A DNA stretch of 63,275 bases, counting the filler, from Licmophora abbreviata (Eukaryota): NCBI GenBank assembly GCA_900291995.1. It is 15 parts of 15 records of this genome, joined end to end, with 100 filler letters (N's around TTAATTAATTAA, not from the genome) between each part and the next. Parts side by side here need not be neighbours in the genome. Positions count along the whole stretch, not along the records: positions 54,374 to 61,132 come from OLMU01001314.1; 14 more parts are not named here. One strand, written 5' to 3'. Position numbers and translations under genes: made by a program. The notes beneath the pieces were generated by a model. That model did no database searches. It saw only the letters and a list, made by a program, of their open reading frames with translations, and was not told the DNA's origin. This document shows positions 10,192-61,531 of the stretch, in pieces. Each line of letters opens with the position of its first letter. Position 1 is the stretch's first letter.

Positions 10192-10739
10192 GAATGAATC
10201 CTCCCTCGGCTCTATCTAATCTACCTCAATGCTATCTGGGAATTCAGACCTTGTTTCGTGTTTGCGAAAGGTCAATGCAATGGCGATCAAAGTACCGGGT
10301 ACACAATGAGAGGCAAACAAGAAATTAACTTGAAACTGCCGCCGAGACCCGAGAATGCGAGAATGAAGGAATCGAAGGAAAGAGACAAAGAGATCGATCG
10401 GTATCATACCGCGGTACCGCTACCAGGTACAGCCGTACAGGTACGATACAGGTACGACACAGGTACCGGGAGGTTGCTTAACAAGTATAGTACTCGAGTA
10501 CGATACTCCGAGTATTAACAGTGTGTATCATACATACCGGTGGGCGTAGTCGAATGAGTCACTCGAGTCACGCGAGTCACGTGACACAGTCGCTCTGCAA
10601 AACCCAGTGACGCCGGCTTGATACCGTGTGTGTGTGTNNNNNNNNNNNNNNNNNNNNNNNNNNNNNNNNNNNNNNNNNNNNTTAATTAATTAANNNNNNN
10701 NNNNNNNNNNNNNNNNNNNNNNNNNNNNNNNNNNNNNAA

Positions 10740-35325: not shown

Positions 35326-37460
35326 TCATACTTCCATTTTGGATGTCTTTCTCCTACCGCTTCCCGAAGCACTACTTTCGCTTGAAGAAGTGGCGTAAAG
35401 ATCAGGAGCACCGCCATCTCCTGTTGACTTTGTTGTCAATTTCTTGTTCGACGACTTAACGAACTCTGGATCTGATTCATTCCTTTGACAAAGCTTACAT
35501 GTAGCAGACGCGCACTGATGCACATTCATGGTAGAATGCTTTCCACCTAGATCTTTTGAGCTGGCCAAAATGAGCCCACCCTCGTCGTACACTTCATCTT
35601 CGGCGATGGTTTCTAATCCGTGTCCCAAGGCGAGCTGGCGCTCGGTTTCGAGGCATGTCGAACAATGCTGAGAGAGGTATCGGACGCCATCCTTCGAGTA
35701 ATGGTAGTAACCTTGGTGGAAGCTCCCCGGAGGATCGGCGGAGCTACTATCATCGTCATCACCGAGAGCGGCCAATGCAGCGGCGTCCAGCTCTTTCTGT
35801 GTCACAACCGTGCGTCGCTTACGTAACAAGAGTAGAAGTAAAGCAAGCAGCGCCACACCTGAGATGGCTGATACAGCAATGATAGCTCCAAAAGCCTCAT
35901 CGTCTTCACTACTTTCGGCAGTCTGCAGTTCGCCACCATCTTCGTTTCCATAGTTGCGTCCGAACCAGGTAGTGCCGGATGATCCGTAGTCTGCGCCTTC
36001 GACACCACCACTGCTGTCAGTACCGCTGTTATCGGTGCCATCATCAGGCCCGCCATTCTCTGTGCCGTCGCCTGTCGTGTCACTTGTATCACTGATGTCA
36101 GTGCCGCTTCCGTCGGTTCCACTGCCATCAGTGCCGTCGTCAGGCCCACCACCTCCACCGCCATTCTCTGTGCCGTCGCCTGTCGTGTCACTCGTATCAC
36201 TGGTATCAGTACCACTACCGTCAGTGCCACTGCCATCAGTGCCATCGTCAGGCCCNNNNNNNNNNNNNNNNNNNNNNNNNNNNNNNNNNNNNNNNNNNNT
36301 TAATTAATTAANNNNNNNNNNNNNNNNNNNNNNNNNNNNNNNNNNNNNNNNNNNNCCATTCTCTGTGCCGTCACCCGTCGTGTCGCTGGTATCAGTGCCG
36401 CTACCGTCAGTGCCACTGCCATCAGTGCCATCATCAGGCCCGCCATTCTCTGTGCCGTCGCCTGTCGTGTCACTTGTATCACTGATGTCAGTGCCGCTTC
36501 CGTCGGTTCCACTGCCATCAGTGCCGTCGTCAGGCCCACCACCTCCACCGCCATTCTCTGTGCCGTCGCCTGTCGTGTCACTGGTATCACTGATGTCAGT
36601 GCCGCTACCGTCGGTACCACTGCCATCAGTGCCGTCGTCAGGCCCGCCCGAGCCTGGAGGTCCACCAAAGGTCCCGGTCCCTTCGAATTCACCAGTCGTT
36701 CTGTTGAAGTAGTCACCCAGGTACGATACTTTCTTGACAGTCGGCAGTAGATCAGATAGCAGTTCGTCATTATCCATGGTAAGTTCGATGGCATCGAGGA
36801 CGGTTGCAATGGTGTACGCCAAGTCGTCCCCCTCATGAGACACAATGGCCATCCTCCCCAGAAGCACGTAGCAGTTGTATTGTGGGAAAGCCACCTTTTC
36901 AGCCGGACAGATGACTTAGAAAAGAGTGACAAGAATGATAAGCGACAAGGTAACTAAAGTCGAACGCTAGTGCATCTTCTGACTTGCCCGTCCCACGTAC
37001 CGTTTGTTTTCACATCTTTGGGGCTAGAAGTAAAGGAGATCAAGCCCAAGTGTCGCTCCTTGTCGACAAGTTTCATGGGAATAGCCTGCAGCTCCCTGTT
37101 TCCACCCTCGTCAGGCATATAGCACCAGGAAACTGATCCTTCGATGGCATGGAAGATCAATCTGTCGAGAAGCGGAACCCATCTCATGTCGTCTACGGTG
37201 CTTTCGACCGAGTACCAGAATTCGAACTGCGTTGGTTTCATACTGCGGGTGTCATCTCGATCATCTTCGGAAACACATTCGAGAGTTTTTGCTTCCATTC
37301 CACTAGCACGGCCTTCGAGCTGTCTTGTAAGTCCAAACCCAGCCTGAGAATCAGCGCGTGGCGAATGGCGATCCCTCAATGAACTACCCCTCATGCCAAA
37401 TGATCCAGCCGATACCGGCGAAGCCACGAGAAACCAGTTTGCAAAAGAGCCAACCTTCAT
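35326..37460 (-). CDS. Type I membrane protein with an extracellular Gly/Asp/Thr/Ser tandem-repeat stalk and Cys/His-rich cytoplasmic tail (spans gap)
   Basis: Signal peptide MKVGSF..., intron about 36915..37000, repeats DDGTDGSGTDGSGTDISDTSDTTGDGTENGG, TM ...ALLALLLLLL then RKRR, tail motifs HCSTC and VHQCASATCKLC. Confidence 0.8.
36035..36650 (-). repeat. Coding minisatellite (~90-115 nt units) interrupted by a gap
   Basis: 36035-36191 is essentially identical to 36425-36581. True copy number is unresolved. Confidence 0.9.
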
Positions 37461-53255: not shown

Positions 53256-54273
53256 TTACGCCTCCTCATCATCGTAGTACTCTTCTACATCGTATTCGTC
53301 ATATTCATCGTACTGCTCCGCTTCCATAGCTTTCTCCCCTGCTTGTTCAAGCTCTTCCTCGTCATCGGCCTCTTTGCTGTCATCGGTGACCTCTGATGAC
53401 AACTTTGCTTCAACAGATGAGTCGTCCTTGGCTTCAGTTTCTGCTGACGGATCGCTCTTATCTGCTTCATCTTCCACATACTCTGCTGCCGTCAGACCCT
53501 TCTGAAGAATCTCTGGAGAGACACTAGCACCCATTCGCGACGGAAGGAATAACCCATACGCATCCAGTTTAGCCGACGTCCTCTTCACCATCGATCGTGA
53601 CTGAGGGAGCAGATCCTCGCTATAGAACTCACACCATCGCTTGATCGTGCCAGGGTCAGCCCCCTTCAAGCTCCCCCCTTTAAGTGCACGATTCAATGCA
53701 ACCGCAACTGCTGTCGTCAAGCCGATCAGATCAGATGCCACACGCTCGGCTGCAATGGCTGTATTTTCGCATTCCTCTCCATCTTTCAGGCTGCAAGCGA
53801 CACCGGCCTTCAATAGCATCGTGGCTGCCTCCAGGTGCTCAGTGCGAAGCGCTGTAGACGTAATCGGCTTGGCGGGTTTCTTTGAAGACGATTTTCCCGA
53901 TGACGGGTCATGCGAAATTTCGTCAAACATACCTCCAAAGCACTGGGCTCTCAGAAGCACGTAGTGCGCGTAGCGAGACATGAAAGCGCGATACTTTGCA
54001 CTCTCAGGCTGTCATGACGGTTGAGATTACAGTGAAGAGTGAGTACCAGAGGATGCGAACGGAACACATAGTCAAGAATGAAGCCTACATACCGATGCGT
54101 CCCCACCAAGGAGCTGCTTCGAGTTGAAATACTTGTCCTTGCGTTTTGGGTCACGAGTGCGCCGCAACTCGCGCAAACGGGCTTTGAGAGCAGGTGCATG
54201 CTCAGGAGCTCCATCGGCCGCAAATCGATGCAAAACATACAAAGCTTTGATTGTCGTACGCCAGTCCTTTTCG
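53256..54273 (-). CDS. ANTH/ENTH-like clathrin-adaptor domain protein, 5' truncated by gap
   Basis: DWRTTIKALYVLHRF...DG and FMSRYAHYVLLR resemble ANTH helices. Intron about 54009..54092. Acidic tail. Confidence 0.65.
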
Positions 54274-54420
54274 NNNNNNNNNNNNNNNNNNNNNNNNNNN
54301 NNNNNNNNNNNNNNNNNTTAATTAATTAANNNNNNNNNNNNNNNNNNNNNNNNNNNNNNNNNNNNNNNNNNNNGAACTCACTCCTCTGACGGATCTCAGG
54401 TACAGTCCTACTTTCAGGTC

Positions 54421-57400
54421 ATGGGGCGACTCCATTTGGGCCGGGATCATACAATACCGGTCGGGGACTTCGCGTGGTCTCCTGATCACTTGTCCTGCTG
54501 GGAGGGATACCTTGGATACCGGCCAAAGCTGGGTCGCGTGTACTTTGATGCGTTTCGTCTCAAACAACAGACACTACGAGTAGGAGACTTTGTTGAACTA
54601 CAGGAGGGAGATGATGAATTCAAGAATGAGTTTCGAATTGTTTCCGCGTTTCAGGCAATGAAAAGCTTTCTTGGCATTGTCGACGCCGAGAATAATTATG
54701 GGGAATACCAGAAGAGAGGTGAGTTTATGACAATCTCTTCCTTTGAAAGTGGTGTCACCTCTAGAATGTGGCTTACCATTCTTTGTCTGAGAAAGGACAT
54801 GCTTACATAGAGGTGGCGCCGCTGAGAAGCTCTGCAACAGAACGACGTGCTTTGGTAGAACGCTCCAAAGATATTCCAAGACATGTCGATGCACGCCCAC
54901 GATGGCTTTTCGACAAAATGTTGTCTTTGCGCAAGCTTGAGATAACAAGTGCAGACTGTCGCTGTAGCAGTCCACTGGAGGAGGCTGTCCTCGGCGGAAC
55001 AGCCAAAGAACTTGTGGAGAAGTATGTTGGATTCACATGGCCAACGCGCTGGGCTGTGAAGCAGTGTCTCATTGTGGGTGTCAGAAAACTGTATAGGGGT
55101 ACCTGCGATCGCATTCCCGTGTTTGAGGACAACATAAACTTTTCAAGCGATGACAGTGACTGCACGCACGATGAAGGGGACAGAGCTGCTCACGAGAGGA
55201 GTACGCACAGGCAAGTTTCCAGAAAACAGCATGACAGAGCAGTTGCAATGGGAGGTATGCAAGATAGCAAAAAGCCACTTCCAATTGTATTGGTCGTCGG
55301 CGAGATTTCGCTGGGGCAAAGCAGTGGTCGAGAAGTCTTAGAGAAGGAGGCCGAGTCTTTCCACGCTCAAGCAAAGTCTTCTGAGGTTAGGGACAAACTG
55401 GCCAAACTTTGCCCCATTAGCGCATTTCTGAATGTCACTTCCTCACCGAGCGCTGACGCGCATGATAGTACCGAGCTGCTAAGACTAGCGAGGCGGCACA
55501 GCTTGATTCCTCAACAAATGTCGTTCAGGGGCCTCCAGGGCGACGTTTGTCGGGCAGCCATCAGGGCCGAATCACTGGTTGTATACGTTGCGCCCTGTGG
55601 ACATGGGAAGACCTTGTGTTATCAAATTCCTTCTCTGCAGGAATCAGGGATAACAATCGTGGTGGAACCGTATAAGGAGCTGATACGGAATCAGATTGCA
55701 ATTATGTCTGACTTACCGGGACAAACTTTCAACGTGGAGCAGCTGTACTCAAAAGAGGCAGTGGAGATTGGTAACTACCGCACCCACGCGACAACTCGAC
55801 TGAAGTACCTCTTGAGTTTGCACAGACAGGGATCGCAAGACCCAAAACCGAGAGTTATATTTTCGACACCCGAACTTGTAGCGAATGCAATTTCATTGAT
55901 TCAAGACTTGAGCAAACTTGGAGCTCTGAAACGGATAGTCATTGATGAGTTTGATATGGTCAGCGCCTCTGGACGGGAAGCTTATCGAAGGTTGCTACCT
56001 TGTCTCAACGAGAAATGCATGAATGGAACAAAGCTTTTGTTCTTGTCGGGGACTGTAACAAGTGAGAAGCCGTTGCGAGCCTTACTTGGCGATAGGAAGC
56101 CGGAGGTCTTTGTGGAATCCAGCGTTGTGCGCGATTCGCTATGCTACTCTGTTGAGCGAAAGATCGATACAAAGCAGGTACTGGCTAGGCTGATTTACTG
56201 CCATCAGAAAAATAGTGTCGCTCGAGTCTCACTTTTTCCATTTCGTTTAGGTGGCGGAGCGGATTCGTGAGCAAATTGTGGACTATCAACAGCTAAACAA
56301 TATACCGGCAAAAACCGTGGTCTATTGTACAACAAGAAAGAATTGTGATAGAATAGCCGGTGAACTGAAGAAATTGGGCTTCGGAGTGGCGGTCACAACA
56401 AGCATCGACACTGCGGGTTCCGGCATGCGTGAAAAGATGACAAAGTTCAACTCCGGTGAAGTGCAGATTCTATGTACCACTTCAGGTAAGGCACCGCATT
56501 ACCGCGTTTCATGATCATTACAGGCATCTAACTTAAATTGAAATCCATCACAACACATCGGGCAGTCCTTGCACGTGGGGTACATATTCCGGACATCCGG
56601 TTTGTCTTTCATGCTTGGCTGCCTCTATCACTTGAAAGCTATATCCAGGAGACTGGACGAGCTGGCCGGGATGGAAAGGAGAGTTTTTGTACACTCTTTT
56701 ACAGACCGCACGATATCCAAACCGTCAAAGAAGTTCGAGCACCCCGTACTGTGAGCGGGAGTTCTGAAGAAAGTCTGGGCGAGTTGGACCTGACTCTCGA
56801 GAAAGACATCCGTGACATGATCCAGTACTGTACACAAGGCTACAACTGCCGCTCAAAGCTTCTGGCTCATCATGCAGTTCAACCTCTTGTACATCACCTT
56901 AAAGAAAGCTTCCCCGAATGCGGAAAGTGCGACAACTGCAATGCAAAGGAAAGGGAATCCAGCGATGAATCGATTACCAGCTTGGTAGATCAGTTTCTGT
57001 GTCAGATCGGCCAGAACCCTTCATCCTGCCTCAGTCTTGTTACACTTAGGCAAGTGATGACCGACCTACTTACAAAGCATGTTCTCTCTGAAAGAGCCTT
57101 CAAGTGGCTGGCCTTTAAAAAATCAGAGGGGAAGGGATTACTTGAAGACGTCGTACGACTGCTCTCCGGACTCATGGTGACGCACACAGACAATGTAGAG
57201 TCCTTCCGGTCGCTGCTCAGAGACGAGAAAGTAGACATCGTATTGCGATGCATGAAGCACCCAAACGTCGACTCAGACCCAGACCCAGACCCAATAGGAG
57301 ACACTGTCGAGCAAGCCTCGAATTCGTCTCAATGGGGGAATTCGGTGGAAGACATTGCTTTTCCTCAGAATTGGCATGATACACACCATCCCCCGGCTAA

Positions 57401-60377
57401 TCGCACGAGAGACAAGCCGCCACCCCTTATAACTGACATGCTCTTTCGCGACCCAGAAAAACGGCAATATCTCCCTGCTATTCAAAAGAAAATACCTTAT
57501 GCTTCTTTCCTCGTCCAATTTGAAGCTGTTCGGTAAGCTCACTTCCATTGACTTTTCACCGCGAATACCAAGGCTCTCACACTCTTGACCGCCATAAACC
57601 CAATAGGCTCCTGAGGGACCACGAACCAGATATTCAGGCACTCAACGAACCATGCTGGAGTCAAGACGGGCACCTGGATGATTGGTTGTCTCTACACAAG
57701 CTTTTCTACGGCGCTAGCCCTGACCGAAATGCCCAAACAGCAATTGAGTCGATTGCAACTGTCCAACTAAACTCTGCCACCGAATCAATAGATCCCTTCC
57801 TCTATTTCCGAGCGATTCTGAATCCAAATGGGACGATTGAGCTTCTTCCACCCGAGAAAGCTTCAGACCGAAGAGTCTTTCGGAAATTTGGCAGCGACAG
57901 ATTCCTTCACTTAGATGTTGACGCGTCAGACAAGGATTTTTGCCGAAAAAATGTAAGCGAGCTCATTGAAAAGCCGATCTGGATTGCTGGTCGAAAGTAT
58001 GAATTTCTTTGGTGTAAGCAGGCGAAGTCGCCTCAGTGCTATGTGTTGTTTGCCGAAAAGGGCAGGGGAATCAATCTCAACGACGAGATTGAGGTCAAAG
58101 ACGTATGGGACTGGGTCATTCCAGAGGAGATCAATCCTGGCCTCCAGATTGTGAAGGCATTCAAGAGGATGAAGCTTGCCTTTTCAAAGACAGAGCCAGC
58201 CGGACGACTCCCTGACAGATGCATCGAGATACACCGCGATATAATTGGAGAAGACGGCAGCGCTCGAACCGATGGCTGTGGATTACTTTCTCAGAGTGCG
58301 CTTGATTTCGTTTGGAAGAACAATTGCCCTGCCCGAGACTCTACGGACGCGGAAGGATCTGACGACTGCCCATGGTCGTCTTTCCAGGCGAGAATTGGAG
58401 GATTCAAGGGTGAGTTCGTCCTCGATCCAACGCTGGAGGGGTTCCAGATCATCTGTCGCGACAGCCAGAAGAAATTCAGTTTACGGATGAGAAGCTTGAA
58501 GAATCGTCCCGACGACTGGCATTCGTTCGATGACGCGAACGATACAGTAGATGTATGCAGCTGGGATGCGACACCTGAAACTGCATGCTTCAATGTTCGC
58601 GTCATTCAGCTACTTGATCACTTAGCCGAGACAAACCAGAAGCGCGCAGACCTATTGGAGCTACTGCTCAGCCAAGTCGATGTGGGAATTGAATCTAGGG
58701 CCCCAAAAGAAAATATCAAGACTCGTCAGGGCTTCATGCGTCGAAAACACGAAAAGCTCAGTGACTGGAGAACAGTCCTCTACCGAATGGTATGCGCTGG
58801 AGTAGGATCTGACGAGCCCGTGCACCAGAAGTTTCATAAAAAGTATCAAAGAGAAGAAGTCGAGACGATGAGAGACAAGGCAAGGATTATGTCGTTGCAC
58901 TCATCGAAATTCCGTCTGTGTTAGGACACCATATCTCATCTATGCTTTCGCGCTGCTTACTCGTCCTGAAGGCAAGATACCCCCTCCCAAGGAACATGGG
59001 ATTTAACCTGCGTCTCATTCCAGACCATACCGGGATTCTCTGCGAAGGGGAAGCATATGTCGCCATTCACGACTCATGCAAGCAAACTGTATCAAGGGCT
59101 ACACATCTGCTGGCGATGCGATCCCCCTCCTACTTCCCGGGCGACTTGCGGAAGCTCAAACTTCTTGACGACAACACGCTAGAGAGTCGCTGCGAAACTT
59201 ATACCGGAAAGCACCCAAACCCGCTTAAGTTTTTCCGAGGACTCAGAATCGGGCTGGTGCTGAGTACGAAGGGGACCTTCTGCGAAGCCGACGCAATGAG
59301 TGGTGGCGACGTTGACGGCGACAAGGCTTGGGTGTGCTGGTGGCCAAAGCTGGTGGACCTCATTCCTCGTGTCGACCCGGAGAACACGAAGACAGACGCT
59401 TTTCAAACCAGGACACCGCCTGAAGCCACACGTCCCTTCTATGACACATCTATAAAGGAACGGGTCAAGTACGCCCTGCATTTCGGGAAGCATGGCGCTC
59501 ACCTTGGAAAGTTGAGTAACACGCTTGATCGAGTCGCAGACAGAAATGGCTTCGACGACACCGCCACAAAGGCATACGGGACTCAAGCCTTTCTGCAAGT
59601 AAGTACGGGGATGATGCCAAGCGATCAGACCGGTAGCAACATGCGCTTATCGCCGCTCTCCTTTTTATCATAGGTTGATCATCCATACTTTCTGTGTGAA
59701 GTGCCTTCACAGGTGTGGGACAAAGTGAGCAATGAGCACGCTGAAGTTGGAATGCCACACTGGTACAAGTCGCAGCATACTCGAAATCCACGGAACAAAC
59801 AACACACATACCATTCAGAAAGGGCTATGGGAAAGATCTTCGACCATGTTGAGATGCGACTAGCTGCCTTGGAGACGGGCTTACCAACAGAAACAAAACC
59901 CGACGAGCATATTCTGAAGTTCGTCAGGACATGGTCAGATAGCCACCGCTATCTTGCCCACGACAAGCTCGAAGATCTGCGAACAAGTCTCGAAGCAGAA
60001 ATTCAAGAGTGGACGCCAAGAATTAGCTGGAAAGACGAAGACTTTACAAGGAAGCGCCGTCAGCTGATTGAGACATCTGGCTTTGGTAGCGAAGGAACCC
60101 TCGTAGCCGCTGTTCTATACGAAGTGTGCATGCGGGTACGCAAGGTACGTCGGCTTCTGTTGGCGTGCAACGGAATAATATCTGCGACCGTGTCTTACTT
60201 CAAAATGTGCGATCTTTTGCGTCCACCCAGCATGAAGAAATCGTGTGGCTGCTCTTTGTCAAGCAGCTGACACGCATCATCAGTGATGCATCCTGCGAAA
60301 TTGGTGACTGCGCTGCCACCTACGACGACGCCGGGGAAAAGGATTTGATCAATGGCGGTCGACGCTATCGCAGGTGA
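54421..60377 (+). CDS. RecQ helicase - RNA-dependent RNA polymerase (QDE-1-like) fusion protein with a possible N-terminal BAH-like segment; about 1,794 aa, 5' end possibly incomplete
   Basis: Exons 54421-54718, 54811-56177, 56251-56485, 56566-57532, 57607-58879, 58972-59598, 59674-60144 and 60231-60377 sum to 5385 nt with matching phases. RecQ motifs: FRGLQ, APCGHGKTLCYQIP, STPE, IVIDE, VYCTTRK, QETGRAGRDG, CR..LL...CGKCDNC. RdRP motifs: RKFGSDRFL, TDGCG, FQARIGGFKG, RSP..FPGDL, SGGDVDGD. Confidence 0.88.
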
Positions 60378-60559: not shown

Positions 60560-61531
60560 TTATTTTGGAACGTCGCAGTCACCGGCCTCTCCTGGTGGTT
60601 TCGTTGCTCGTCGTAGTCGCTCCATGTCGTTGCCGGAAAGTTCAAATGAGAACAAGTCCATGTTGGACCGAATGTGTTTCTCATCATCGCTCTTTGGAAT
60701 GACTCCACCGACAAATGTGCCTTCCTCTAAAGCTTGTTGCACAATGAAACGAAGCGACACCTGAGCACCGCTCACACCATAGCTTTCGGCAATTGCAGTC
60801 ACTAGGTCTCCATGCACCAACGAGTCTTTCGGTTCGTATTGGCAAGGCCCGCACAACGGAGAGAAGCTCATGAAGGTGATCTCATGCTCACGGCACTTGG
60901 CAATGACATGGTCGACATCTCCTGAACCCACGTGGTACTCGACTTGATTGAGGGAGGGCATGACGGTTGCCACCCGGACGATGTCGTCGATGTGCTGTGC
61001 ACAATAATGAGATATTCCAATCGAGCGCGCCTCACCAGATTGATAGATTTCTTCCAATGCCAACCACTCTTCTTGTCTCTGGTTTGGAGAGGCATTGTGT
61101 TCCTCCCAGTCTGCCGGAAAGTGCGTCATGAGNNNNNNNNNNNNNNNNNNNNNNNNNNNNNNNNNNNNNNNNNNNNTTAATTAATTAANNNNNNNNNNNN
61201 NNNNNNNNNNNNNNNNNNNNNNNNNNNNNNNNGCCCTCCCGACGCCTTTTTGATTGCCATACCCAAAGGCGGTGTCCACCATGGTATAGCCTGCCTGGAA
61301 AGCTTTGCAGAGTGAATTGTAGGCAACTGTATCATTGTACTGCCAAGTTCCTGCTCCGACCAAGGGCATTCGTACCGGTTCCCCTTGCACATCCTTGCCA
61401 ATCTCAATGAATGGAATTTCATTTGTTAGTCCTGTCCTGGCTGTGCCGCGTTCCATGGAAGGAGTAACCTGACTGCTGCAAAGCAGCACCAGAACAAGGA
61501 CAAGCCGATGTGACGTGGAGAAGTTTGCCAT
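60560..61531 (-). CDS. Aldo-keto reductase with N-terminal leader (spans gap)
   Basis: Motifs MPLVGAGTWQ, VDTAFGYGNQ, GEARSIGISHY, NQVEYH, VIPKS and NMDLFSFELS. Confidence 0.92.

Follow-up and report, generated by a model that had tools for sequence, protein, structure and literature searches.

A RecQ-type helicase and a QDE-1-type RNA-dependent RNA polymerase in one predicted polypeptide of the diatom Licmophora abbreviata

The RecQ–RdRP gene and its relatives

A single gene predicted to encode a RecQ-type helicase and a QDE-1-type RNA-dependent RNA polymerase (RdRP) within a single polypeptide was found in the window, a 63,275-base stretch of DNA of the diatom Licmophora abbreviata that is made up of 15 contigs with 14 spacers (N..TTAATTAATTAA..N, 100 bases each) between them. 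Because of the spacer joints there is no linkage between the contigs on either side, and genes are cut where a contig ends; this nuclear, intron-containing gene has lost its 5' end in that way at the edge of its contig (54374–61132, 6,759 bases), in which it spans positions 54374–60377 of the plus strand. Its eight exons splice in frame with no internal stop according to stop-to-stop frames and a splice check, and there is no run of N's within the gene, both as claimed in a preliminary description of the same DNA. The encoded protein has at least 1,799–1,814 amino acids, with the domains in the order candidate BAH-like N-terminal domain, acidic patch, RecQ-family superfamily 2 (SF2) helicase with a zinc subdomain, about 90 helical residues, disordered linker and QDE-1-type RdRP. 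The fusion is very probably real and expressed as one chain.

The link between the two enzymes needs no splice prediction, since exon 4 is one open frame of 334 codons that includes helicase motif VI, the zinc subdomain, the linker and the RdRP start motif without a stop; this bears out the earlier claim of a single gene with a RecQ helicase and then an RdRP in a single frame. The start motif, FLVQFEAVR|LL, straddles the central intron as had been proposed (57507–57532 and 57607 onward), and that intron (57533–57606) has exactly the canonical ends and the phase 2 previously given. The same motif was present at the beginning of the module in all the relatives read (P0001, P0002, P0005, P0007, P0008 and P0011; P numbers denote related sequences). 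In tblastn, P0001 (1,842 amino acids) was collinear with both the helicase exons and the RdRP exons. Two genomic open reading frames (ORFs) of another organism, P0002 (928 amino acids) and P0003 (746 amino acids), continue from the helicase/zinc part into the RdRP with neither a stop nor an intron at the junction. P0002 represents genomic DNA, because it has read-through inserts at the sites of introns 3 and 5 of the window gene, the site of intron 3 being intronic also in this relative.

A profile search of 1.84 billion representatives, of which the best 150 were listed, followed by Pfam scans, identified RecQ parts and an RdRP on one chain in 14 protein clusters, so that the same architecture was found elsewhere, including the diatoms Corethron hystrix, Ditylum brightwellii and Epithemia clementina. 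Ten of the clusters were full length with DEAD, Helicase_C and RdRP (P0001/P0193, P0034, P0036, P0041, P0086, P0090, P0102, P0105, P0125 and P0228) and four were partial (P0035, P0044, P0059 and P0066). The 26 top matches scanned with Pfam included nine with helicase or RecQ-zinc parts, four with RNase H and 13 with the RdRP only. P0036, P0182 and P0184 carry 'mmetsp' transcript names, a label that denotes a transcriptome project, and the last two are also UniRef records of Corethron hystrix. P0228 is a UniRef protein of 1,832 amino acids from Ditylum brightwellii with DEAD, Helicase_C and RdRP, and the same order is present in two NCBI gene models of Epithemia clementina. The presence of three isoforms in one species together with a second species argues against a chimeric transcriptome assembly.

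Chance juxtaposition was rejected because 14 clusters have the same order, and a pseudogene because the frames are open and the motifs intact. P0005, an RdRP-only ORF of 976 amino acids called 'complete', was rejected as a standalone RdRP; it is 100% identical to residues 857–1832 of P0228 and thus a sub-ORF of a fused protein. The RdRP-only relatives are no evidence of a standalone form, most of the others being single-exon ORFs from genomic contigs. Of 7,998 candidates in a word-indexed search for longer proteins with exon 2, none reached E ≤ 0.001, P0001 included, and this result is read as crowding by other long proteins. When the helicase–linker part of P0001 was searched among proteins of 1,013–3,224 amino acids, 21 were found, none of which except P0001 had PF05183.

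The quick maximum-likelihood tree constructed of 41 RdRP N-terminal halves placed all non-fungal rows in one clade (support 95 in the Shimodaira–Hasegawa-like approximate likelihood-ratio test, SH-aLRT), with fused proteins carrying non-diatom labels branching basally. Within this clade, an inner one (support 100) was formed by a group of 26 rows, including the window sequence and all the diatom fused forms mixed with fragments of unseen architecture, and a group of five rows of RNase H–RdRP proteins. The nearest row to the window sequence was P0049, with 51% identity. Once P0005 was counted as fused, the rows whose architecture is known required only two changes, the minimum for three states, and the approximately unbiased (AU) test did not reject a single clade of fused forms (p-value 0.16). 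One old fusion is compatible with these results, not proven by them, the root not having been inferred and many rows being fragments. Judged from the sequences, the RecQ–RdRP is the usual form of its RdRP clade in diatoms, is conserved across them and is carried by at least two other algal or protist labels: EukProt gives P0102 (2,784 amino acids) the label Picocystis salinarum, and Picozoa single-cell records are part of the P0125 cluster.

Other domains were also seen within the family. The sister clade P0008, P0058, P0075, P0077 and P0083 has an RNase H (RVT_3/RNase_H) where the RecQ helicase otherwise sits, a further enzyme of nucleic-acid hybrids joined to this polymerase, with an additional weak UBA match in P0008. 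P0086 (3,190 amino acids) has RAMA and AP2 domains before the helicase and the RdRP, and P0102 has PHD-type fingers flanking the RecQ helicase on either side, again before the RdRP.

Domain content and gene structure

By its sequence the helicase is classified as RecQ-type, with an SF2 core and a zinc subdomain. The Pfam families expected in the preliminary description were mostly found in the scans of single exon translations: DEAD with 55.5 bits in exon 2, Helicase_C with 24.1 bits in exon 3 and 28.3 in exon 4, the match being split by intron 3, and also PF05183; RecQ_Zn_bind in exon 4 reached 24.5 bits and stayed just under the cut-off of 25. TIGR00614 (recQ_fam) ranked first among the NCBIfam families for each of the three helicase exons, and likewise for P0001 and six of six further relatives. 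Scored exon by exon, the three helicase exons matched collinear parts of the recQ_fam profile (68.9 bits on 10–209, 24.7 on 212–283 and 78.8 on 289–422). All 36 matches of helicase lobe 1 among all PDB sequences belonged to the RecQ family (BLM, RECQ5, RECQ1, RecQ and WRN), as did the first 38 of the 44 matches of exon 4, the last six being DEAD-box RNA helicases; the RecQ type claimed for the helicase thus holds.

Walker A (GHGKT, 55599–55613) and motif VI (QETGRAGRDG, 56646–56675) are intact, the latter in the form typical of RecQ. Motif II reads DEFD ((IVI)DEFD, 55944–55955), with its DE intact, in the window protein and likewise in P0001, P0193, P0036, P0184, P0041, P0187, P0084 and P0086, and DEAH, DECH or DEDH in more distant fused relatives. 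The zinc subdomain has four Cys codons, at 56847, 56919, 56928 and 56937 (the last ending at 56939). In the AlphaFold2 model of exon 4 (mean predicted local distance difference test, pLDDT, 57; 70–80 over residues 11–50), residues 2–129 aligned to BLM 950–1070 (Z 7.8, root-mean-square deviation 4.1 over 115 residues, 36% identity) and to E. coli RecQ 296–408, which comprises the end of lobe 2 and the zinc subdomain. All 50 among the structure matches listed were of the RecQ family. The aligned part ends at about residue 131; beyond it the model shows helices at 136–229 (pLDDT 50–70), and residues 228–296 are predicted to be disordered. Atlas look-alikes of P0001 were RecQ clusters at 0.82–0.84, below the level that counts.

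The polymerase is, to judge from its sequence matches, a QDE-1-type cellular RdRP with an intact catalytic motif. Pfam PF05183 was matched by exon 5 (150 bits, profile 6–340) and exon 6 (86.1 bits, profile 319–515), the coverage in relatives being profile 4–582, and exon 7 gave no usable Pfam match at E ≤ 1. Exon 5 has 40% identity to P0001. The active-site motif SGGDVDGDKAWVCW (59299–59340) aligned to the QDE-1 site, and all three matches of exon 6 among PDB sequences were QDE-1 chains, with GGDVDGDKAWVCW aligned to GGDYDGDMAWVCW. The catalytic loop, GGDVDGD as compared to GGDYDGD of QDE-1, is kept in every fused relative spanning the region. When a full RdRP relative was compared with PDB, QDE-1 chains were the top three of the five matches (E 8e-11 to 8e-10), followed by two other RdRP entries (E 5e-4 and 2e-3). 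The resemblance to the QDE-1 active site noted earlier is thus supported, with QDE-1 as the best solved relative.

At the 5' end the frame is open upstream of the ATG at 54421 to the contig edge, and the contig joint ends 47 bases before this ATG. BLASTP matches of exon 1 were P0034 185–288 (E 1e-12), P0193 641–699 (50% identity) and P0041 496–575. The Met of the ATG aligns to a Leu in both P0034 and P0041, the similarity to both continues upstream, and the relatives matching exon 1 have 185–640 additional residues in front. The 5' end of the gene is therefore missing, and the ATG, which the preliminary description took as the start, encodes an internal Met. Counted from it, the length is 1,794 amino acids with acceptor 54810 or 1,799 with acceptor 54795.

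Conservation of the N-terminal domain, which exon 1 and early exon 2 encode, extends to Corethron and Epithemia as well as to P0034 and P0193. No Pfam family was found for it in the exon translations, and its pieces gave nothing usable at E ≤ 1. The model of the Corethron N-fragment P0183 (mean pLDDT 36.8) is all-beta with pLDDT 50–65 over residues 69–155, and the best 13 of 13 matches in a structure search of 48,161 chains, independent of Foldseek, were BAH-domain proteins with Z from 6.8 down to 3.5 (ORC1, DNMT1, TNRC18, MET1, ZMET2, EBS, AIPP3, ASH1L, ORC1b and Rsc2). The Atlas look-alikes of exon 1, WAC at 0.88 and BAH at 0.77, are leads only. A BAH-like character of the domain, overlooked in the preliminary description, is on the basis of the model a coherent lead, not proof.

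The RDR of Phaeodactylum tricornutum, given with 976 characters in the supplement of PMC4791657, starts with an N-terminal domain and an acidic patch like those of the window protein; the conservation of the domain was seen in a by-eye comparison with the first 400 characters. A length of 976 is too short for the N-terminal domain, a helicase and a full RdRP, and the helicase is either absent or skipped by the gene model, so the gene model and domain content of this published sequence, as it stands in that excerpt, may need re-examination.

The seven introns are 73–92 nucleotides long, six with GT–AG and one, intron 5, with GC–AG ends. The acceptor of intron 1 is ambiguous, 54795 agreeing better with the relatives than 54810, and the intron position is common to a relative, in which the genomic ORFs P0199 and P0191 stop exactly at the end of exon 1. 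The GC–AG junction of intron 5 alone yields the K-xx-[YF]P spacing of P0001, P0005, P0006 and P0007. In exon 8 the C-terminal motif was checked by eye against the C-terminal ends of P0005 and P0007. Retention of intron 4 would end the frame at once with TAA at 57534–57536 (cgG TAA), and the protein made from such an unspliced message would comprise the helicase alone and finish with the RdRP start motif. One sequencing run, for which RNA is only a guess, gave two short contigs (54600–55095) that run straight through intron 1 and end short of the central junction, and is uninformative. The positions of the features are presented in Table 1.

Table 1. Positions of the exons and introns of the RecQ–RdRP gene and of the spacers in the window.
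Feature	Position	Strand	Description
Exon 1, partial	54374–54718	+	First half of the candidate BAH-like N-terminal domain; BLASTP matches P0034, P0193, P0041
Intron 1	54719–54795	+	GTGAGT...AAAG; alternative acceptor 54810
Exon 2	54796–56177	+	Second half of the N-terminal domain, acidic SSDDSD patch, RecQ helicase lobe 1
Intron 2	56178–56250	+	GT–AG, 73 nucleotides; splice check
Exon 3	56251–56485	+	First part of helicase lobe 2; Helicase_C and recQ_fam matches
Intron 3	56486–56565	+	GT–AG, 80 nucleotides
Exon 4	56566–57532	+	End of lobe 2, zinc subdomain, helical region, disordered linker, RdRP start motif
Intron 4	57533–57606	+	tcg|GTAAGC...CAATAG|gct, 74 nucleotides, phase 2
Exon 5	57607–58879	+	N-terminal half of the RdRP; Pfam RdRP match
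Intron 5	58880–58971	+	GCAAGG...GAAG, GC–AG, 92 nucleotides
Exon 6	58972–59598	+	Catalytic part of the RdRP; Pfam RdRP match; active-site motif
Intron 6	59599–59673	+	GTAAGT...ATAG, 75 nucleotides, phase 0; flanking FLQ|VDHPY agrees with relatives
Exon 7	59674–60144	+	RdRP C-terminal region; matches of P0001, P0005 and P0007 in tblastn extend to about 60123–60135
Intron 7	60145–60230	+	GTACGT...CCAG, 86 nucleotides
Exon 8	60231–60377	+	Conserved C-terminal motif; stop TGA 60375–60377
Spacers	2699–2798, 10638–10737, ... 54274–54373, 61133–61232		

On the same contig, an aldo/keto reductase gene (Pfam 77.3 bits) lies convergently on the minus strand at 60560–61132, its stop about 180 bases from that of the RecQ–RdRP gene, and is cut by the contig end. 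On the preceding contig, open frames of the minus strand at 53256–54273 run into the spacer and represent another gene cut by the contig end. Another contig has at 36008–36645 a 248-nucleotide direct repeat (94% identity, 390 nucleotides apart) made up of units of about 42 nucleotides in seven copies.

Possible function and rival explanations

Outside plants and Neurospora, it is not settled how silencing selects its first template (the 'aberrant RNA' problem), and the RNA interference (RNAi) of diatoms, which are major primary producers, is poorly understood. As a whole, the observations are best explained by a conserved RecQ–RdRP protein with an inferred function in chromatin-guided, DNA-templated silencing, and the probability of this explanation is estimated at about 0.55; the DNA-templated mechanism taken by itself would be an even bet. 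According to the proposed mechanism, the N-terminal reader domain would bring the enzyme to particular chromatin, thus choosing the loci, and the RecQ module would open duplex DNA or a stalled or recombining structure in the 3'–5' direction. The single-stranded DNA exposed by the helicase would then be the template from which the tethered polymerase makes aberrant RNA, copying this RNA further into double-stranded RNA (dsRNA), and silencing small RNAs would be produced from the dsRNA via Dicer and Argonaute. In Neurospora this work falls to QDE-3, RPA and QDE-1 as separate proteins.

In the excerpt of PMC2950127, recombinant QDE-1 acts both as DNA-dependent RNA polymerase (DdRP) and as RdRP, stronger as a DdRP, active on single-stranded and inactive on double-stranded DNA; it makes dsRNA from single-stranded DNA with the help of RPA, and its interaction with RPA requires the RecQ helicase QDE-3. 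Also the BAH-like, PHD, AP2 and RNase H partners of the RdRP clade would fit a DNA-proximal role better than that of a cytoplasmic amplifier.

Several points weigh against this explanation. The recQ_fam scores are below the curated cut-off of 219.8, the window exons summing to about 172 and P0001 reaching 192.5; among the relatives, with scores of 182.6–233.6, P0086 is the sole one above it. The RecQ consensus has DEAH in motif II, followed by an aromatic-rich loop. In the window helicase motif II is not DEAH but DEFD and the loop after it is altered, so the helicase is divergent. No Pfam match to the winged-helix (RQC) domain PF09382 was found in the exons, the helical stretch 136–229 of the exon 4 model being unmatched, and none to HRDC (PF00570) in the window exons or in any fused relative scanned; HRDC is present in BLM, Sgs1, WRN and bacterial RecQ and is not universal. 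The BAH assignment comes from a model with the low mean pLDDT given above and middling Z values, and Ditylum P0228 is without the N-terminal domain. Furthermore, the action of the helicase on DNA, rather than on RNA or hybrids, is a prediction from sequence, as is DdRP activity outside Neurospora-type enzymes from the comparison with QDE-1, and the 57532/57607 junction is in Licmophora abbreviata predicted from the sequence and the relatives.

The main rival is an RNA-templated amplifier in which the helicase would work on RNA or RNA–DNA hybrids, clearing the template or releasing the product, DNA never being the template; this is regarded as possible, at clearly lower odds than the DNA-templated reading. 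Such a role has been proposed for the Dicer-type helicase of the Dictyostelium and oomycete RDRs, or for the separate helicases in the RdRP complexes of fission yeast and nematodes. The pairing of helicases with RdRPs is widespread also with non-RecQ helicases, according to the excerpt of PMC4791657. A shift of substrate could be signalled by DEFD in motif II and by the altered loop behind it; the motif change leaves this rival open, and the lowest-ranking PDB matches of exon 4, in lobe 2, were to DEAD-box RNA helicases. However, DNA helicases make up all of the closest families, a zinc subdomain characteristic of RecQ DNA helicases has been retained, and the accessory domains of the family bind chromatin or DNA (BAH-like, PHD and AP2) or act on hybrids (RNase H).

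A DNA-repair or replication-stress enzyme, acting at breaks or stalled forks and producing damage-induced, qiRNA-like RNAs or hybrids with little transposon silencing, appears unlikely: RecQ helicases do act at damaged forks, and DNA damage in Neurospora is followed by aberrant RNA and qiRNA (excerpt of PMC2950127), but the histone-mark readers of the family (BAH-like and PHD) suggest standing chromatin states rather than lesions. It is very improbable that the products are mainly separate, either through wrongly joined genes or through retention of intron 4 and an internal start giving helicase-only and RdRP-only proteins. Retention would place TAA right behind the last codon of exon 4, and P0005, which starts just before the RdRP motif, is called 'complete' in a transcriptome. 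Nevertheless, P0005 is identical to a part of the fused P0228, the conserved RdRP start motif shares its exon with the last part of the helicase, the junction in relatives is without an intron or stop, and exons 4 and 5 are only 74 nucleotides apart.

Within chromatin-guided, DNA-templated silencing, a further-reaching version would make the protein a self-contained DNA-to-dsRNA enzyme, with a histone-mark reader, RecQ and DdRP/RdRP activities, that needs neither RNA polymerase II (Pol II) transcripts nor a separate Pol IV for initiating silencing at marked loci. This version is speculative and as a whole of low likelihood: the fused form would be ancestral for an entire clade of gamma-type RdRPs known from diatoms, a green alga and Picozoa; QDE-3 and QDE-1, separate in fungi, would be a split descendant or a parallel solution; and the RNase H–RdRP proteins would deal with the RNA–DNA hybrid step in another way.

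The structural half of the interpretation given in the preliminary description, a RecQ–RdRP fusion, is supported by the sequence comparisons, and the functional half can be considered a reasonable inference. The conserved covalent fusion serves as independent evidence of the Rosetta-stone kind for cooperation between DNA unwinding and the polymerase clade well beyond fungi, and is a counterpart of the QDE-3/QDE-1 pair, the pairing being known until now only as two separate cooperating fungal proteins. Together with the reader domains of the family, it suggests a direct route from chromatin to dsRNA, and it provides a single gene for knock-outs and a single protein for assays.

Comparison with known systems

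No description of a RecQ–RdRP protein was found in the full-text literature, most subscription journals being outside the coverage, and the protein is probably undescribed. The excerpts of PMC2724275, PMC3145265 and PMC3155517 on the diatom RNAi machinery mention RdRP genes without a helicase part. The architecture is already present in databases, unremarked: the UniRef records A0A7S1FNS1 and A0A7S1FME2 (Corethron hystrix) and A0A7S2A663 (Ditylum brightwellii) have DEAD, Helicase_C and RdRP, as do the NCBI records KAL7568845.1 and KAL7560756.1 (Epithemia clementina) on one chain. They share DEFD, QE/QTGRAGRD, GGD.DGD and the RdRP start motif with the window protein, and those of Corethron and Epithemia, not that of Ditylum, share also the N-terminal domain. 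Their identity to the window protein is 30–50% at most, so they come from different species than the window, and the only names they bear are 'DNA 3'-5' helicase' or 'hypothetical protein'. The architecture is not an oddity of a single genome but the usual form of this RdRP clade in diatoms, already in UniProt and NCBI.

The closest functional parallel considered is the Neurospora pair QDE-3 and QDE-1, likewise a RecQ-family helicase, BLM being the best solved relative of the window helicase, and a polymerase with the GGD.DGD site, QDE-1 being the best solved relative of the window polymerase. In Neurospora QDE-3 and QDE-1 are separate proteins acting with RPA in quelling and qiRNA, whereas here there is one predicted polypeptide with an additional candidate BAH-like domain. 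In comparison to QDE-3, the window helicase differs by DEFD in motif II and by the lack of a detectable HRDC, and the likeness is at the level of the RecQ family. QDE-3 is described as a WRN/BLM homologue in the excerpt of PMC2950127.

Multi-subunit systems offer a looser likeness. In the fission-yeast RDRC (Rdp1-Hrr1-Cid12) and the plant Pol IV-RDR2 with CLSY and SHH1, dsRNA is made from chosen loci by an RNA polymerase together with an ATPase and a chromatin reader. These systems differ in their several subunits and in the helicase families, and in plants the template RNA comes from a separate DNA-dependent polymerase.

The helicase–RdRP fusions of Dictyostelium, oomycetes, Hydra and Nematostella share with the window protein an N-terminal SF2 helicase (DEAD and Helicase_C) before a C-terminal PF05183 RdRP, and QDE-1 is also a gamma-group RdRP. 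The helicase of the window is without the motifs NTIVYLPTGCGKT, DEAHHATG and QSRGRAR, which we take to be of the Dicer/RIG-I-like type, and has instead the RecQ type and the zinc subdomain. These three motifs are present in the RDRs of Albugo, Phytophthora, Hyaloperonospora, Dictyostelium and Hydra in the supplement excerpt of PMC4791657, where the RecQ-type motifs of the window protein are not seen in them, in line with the contrast to Dicer-type fusions drawn previously. The excerpt of the same article reports helicase–RdRP fusions from Dictyostelium (Rrp), peronosporomycete oomycetes, Hydra and Nematostella, with RdRPs in the gamma group and helicases forming a clade apart from the Dicer helicases. 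These fusions were absent both from the helicase–linker matches of P0001 and from the best 150 of the profile search. What is new, as far as the sequences allow it to be judged, is the combination of an RdRP with a RecQ-type rather than a Dicer-type helicase, that is, a different fusion of the same general kind.

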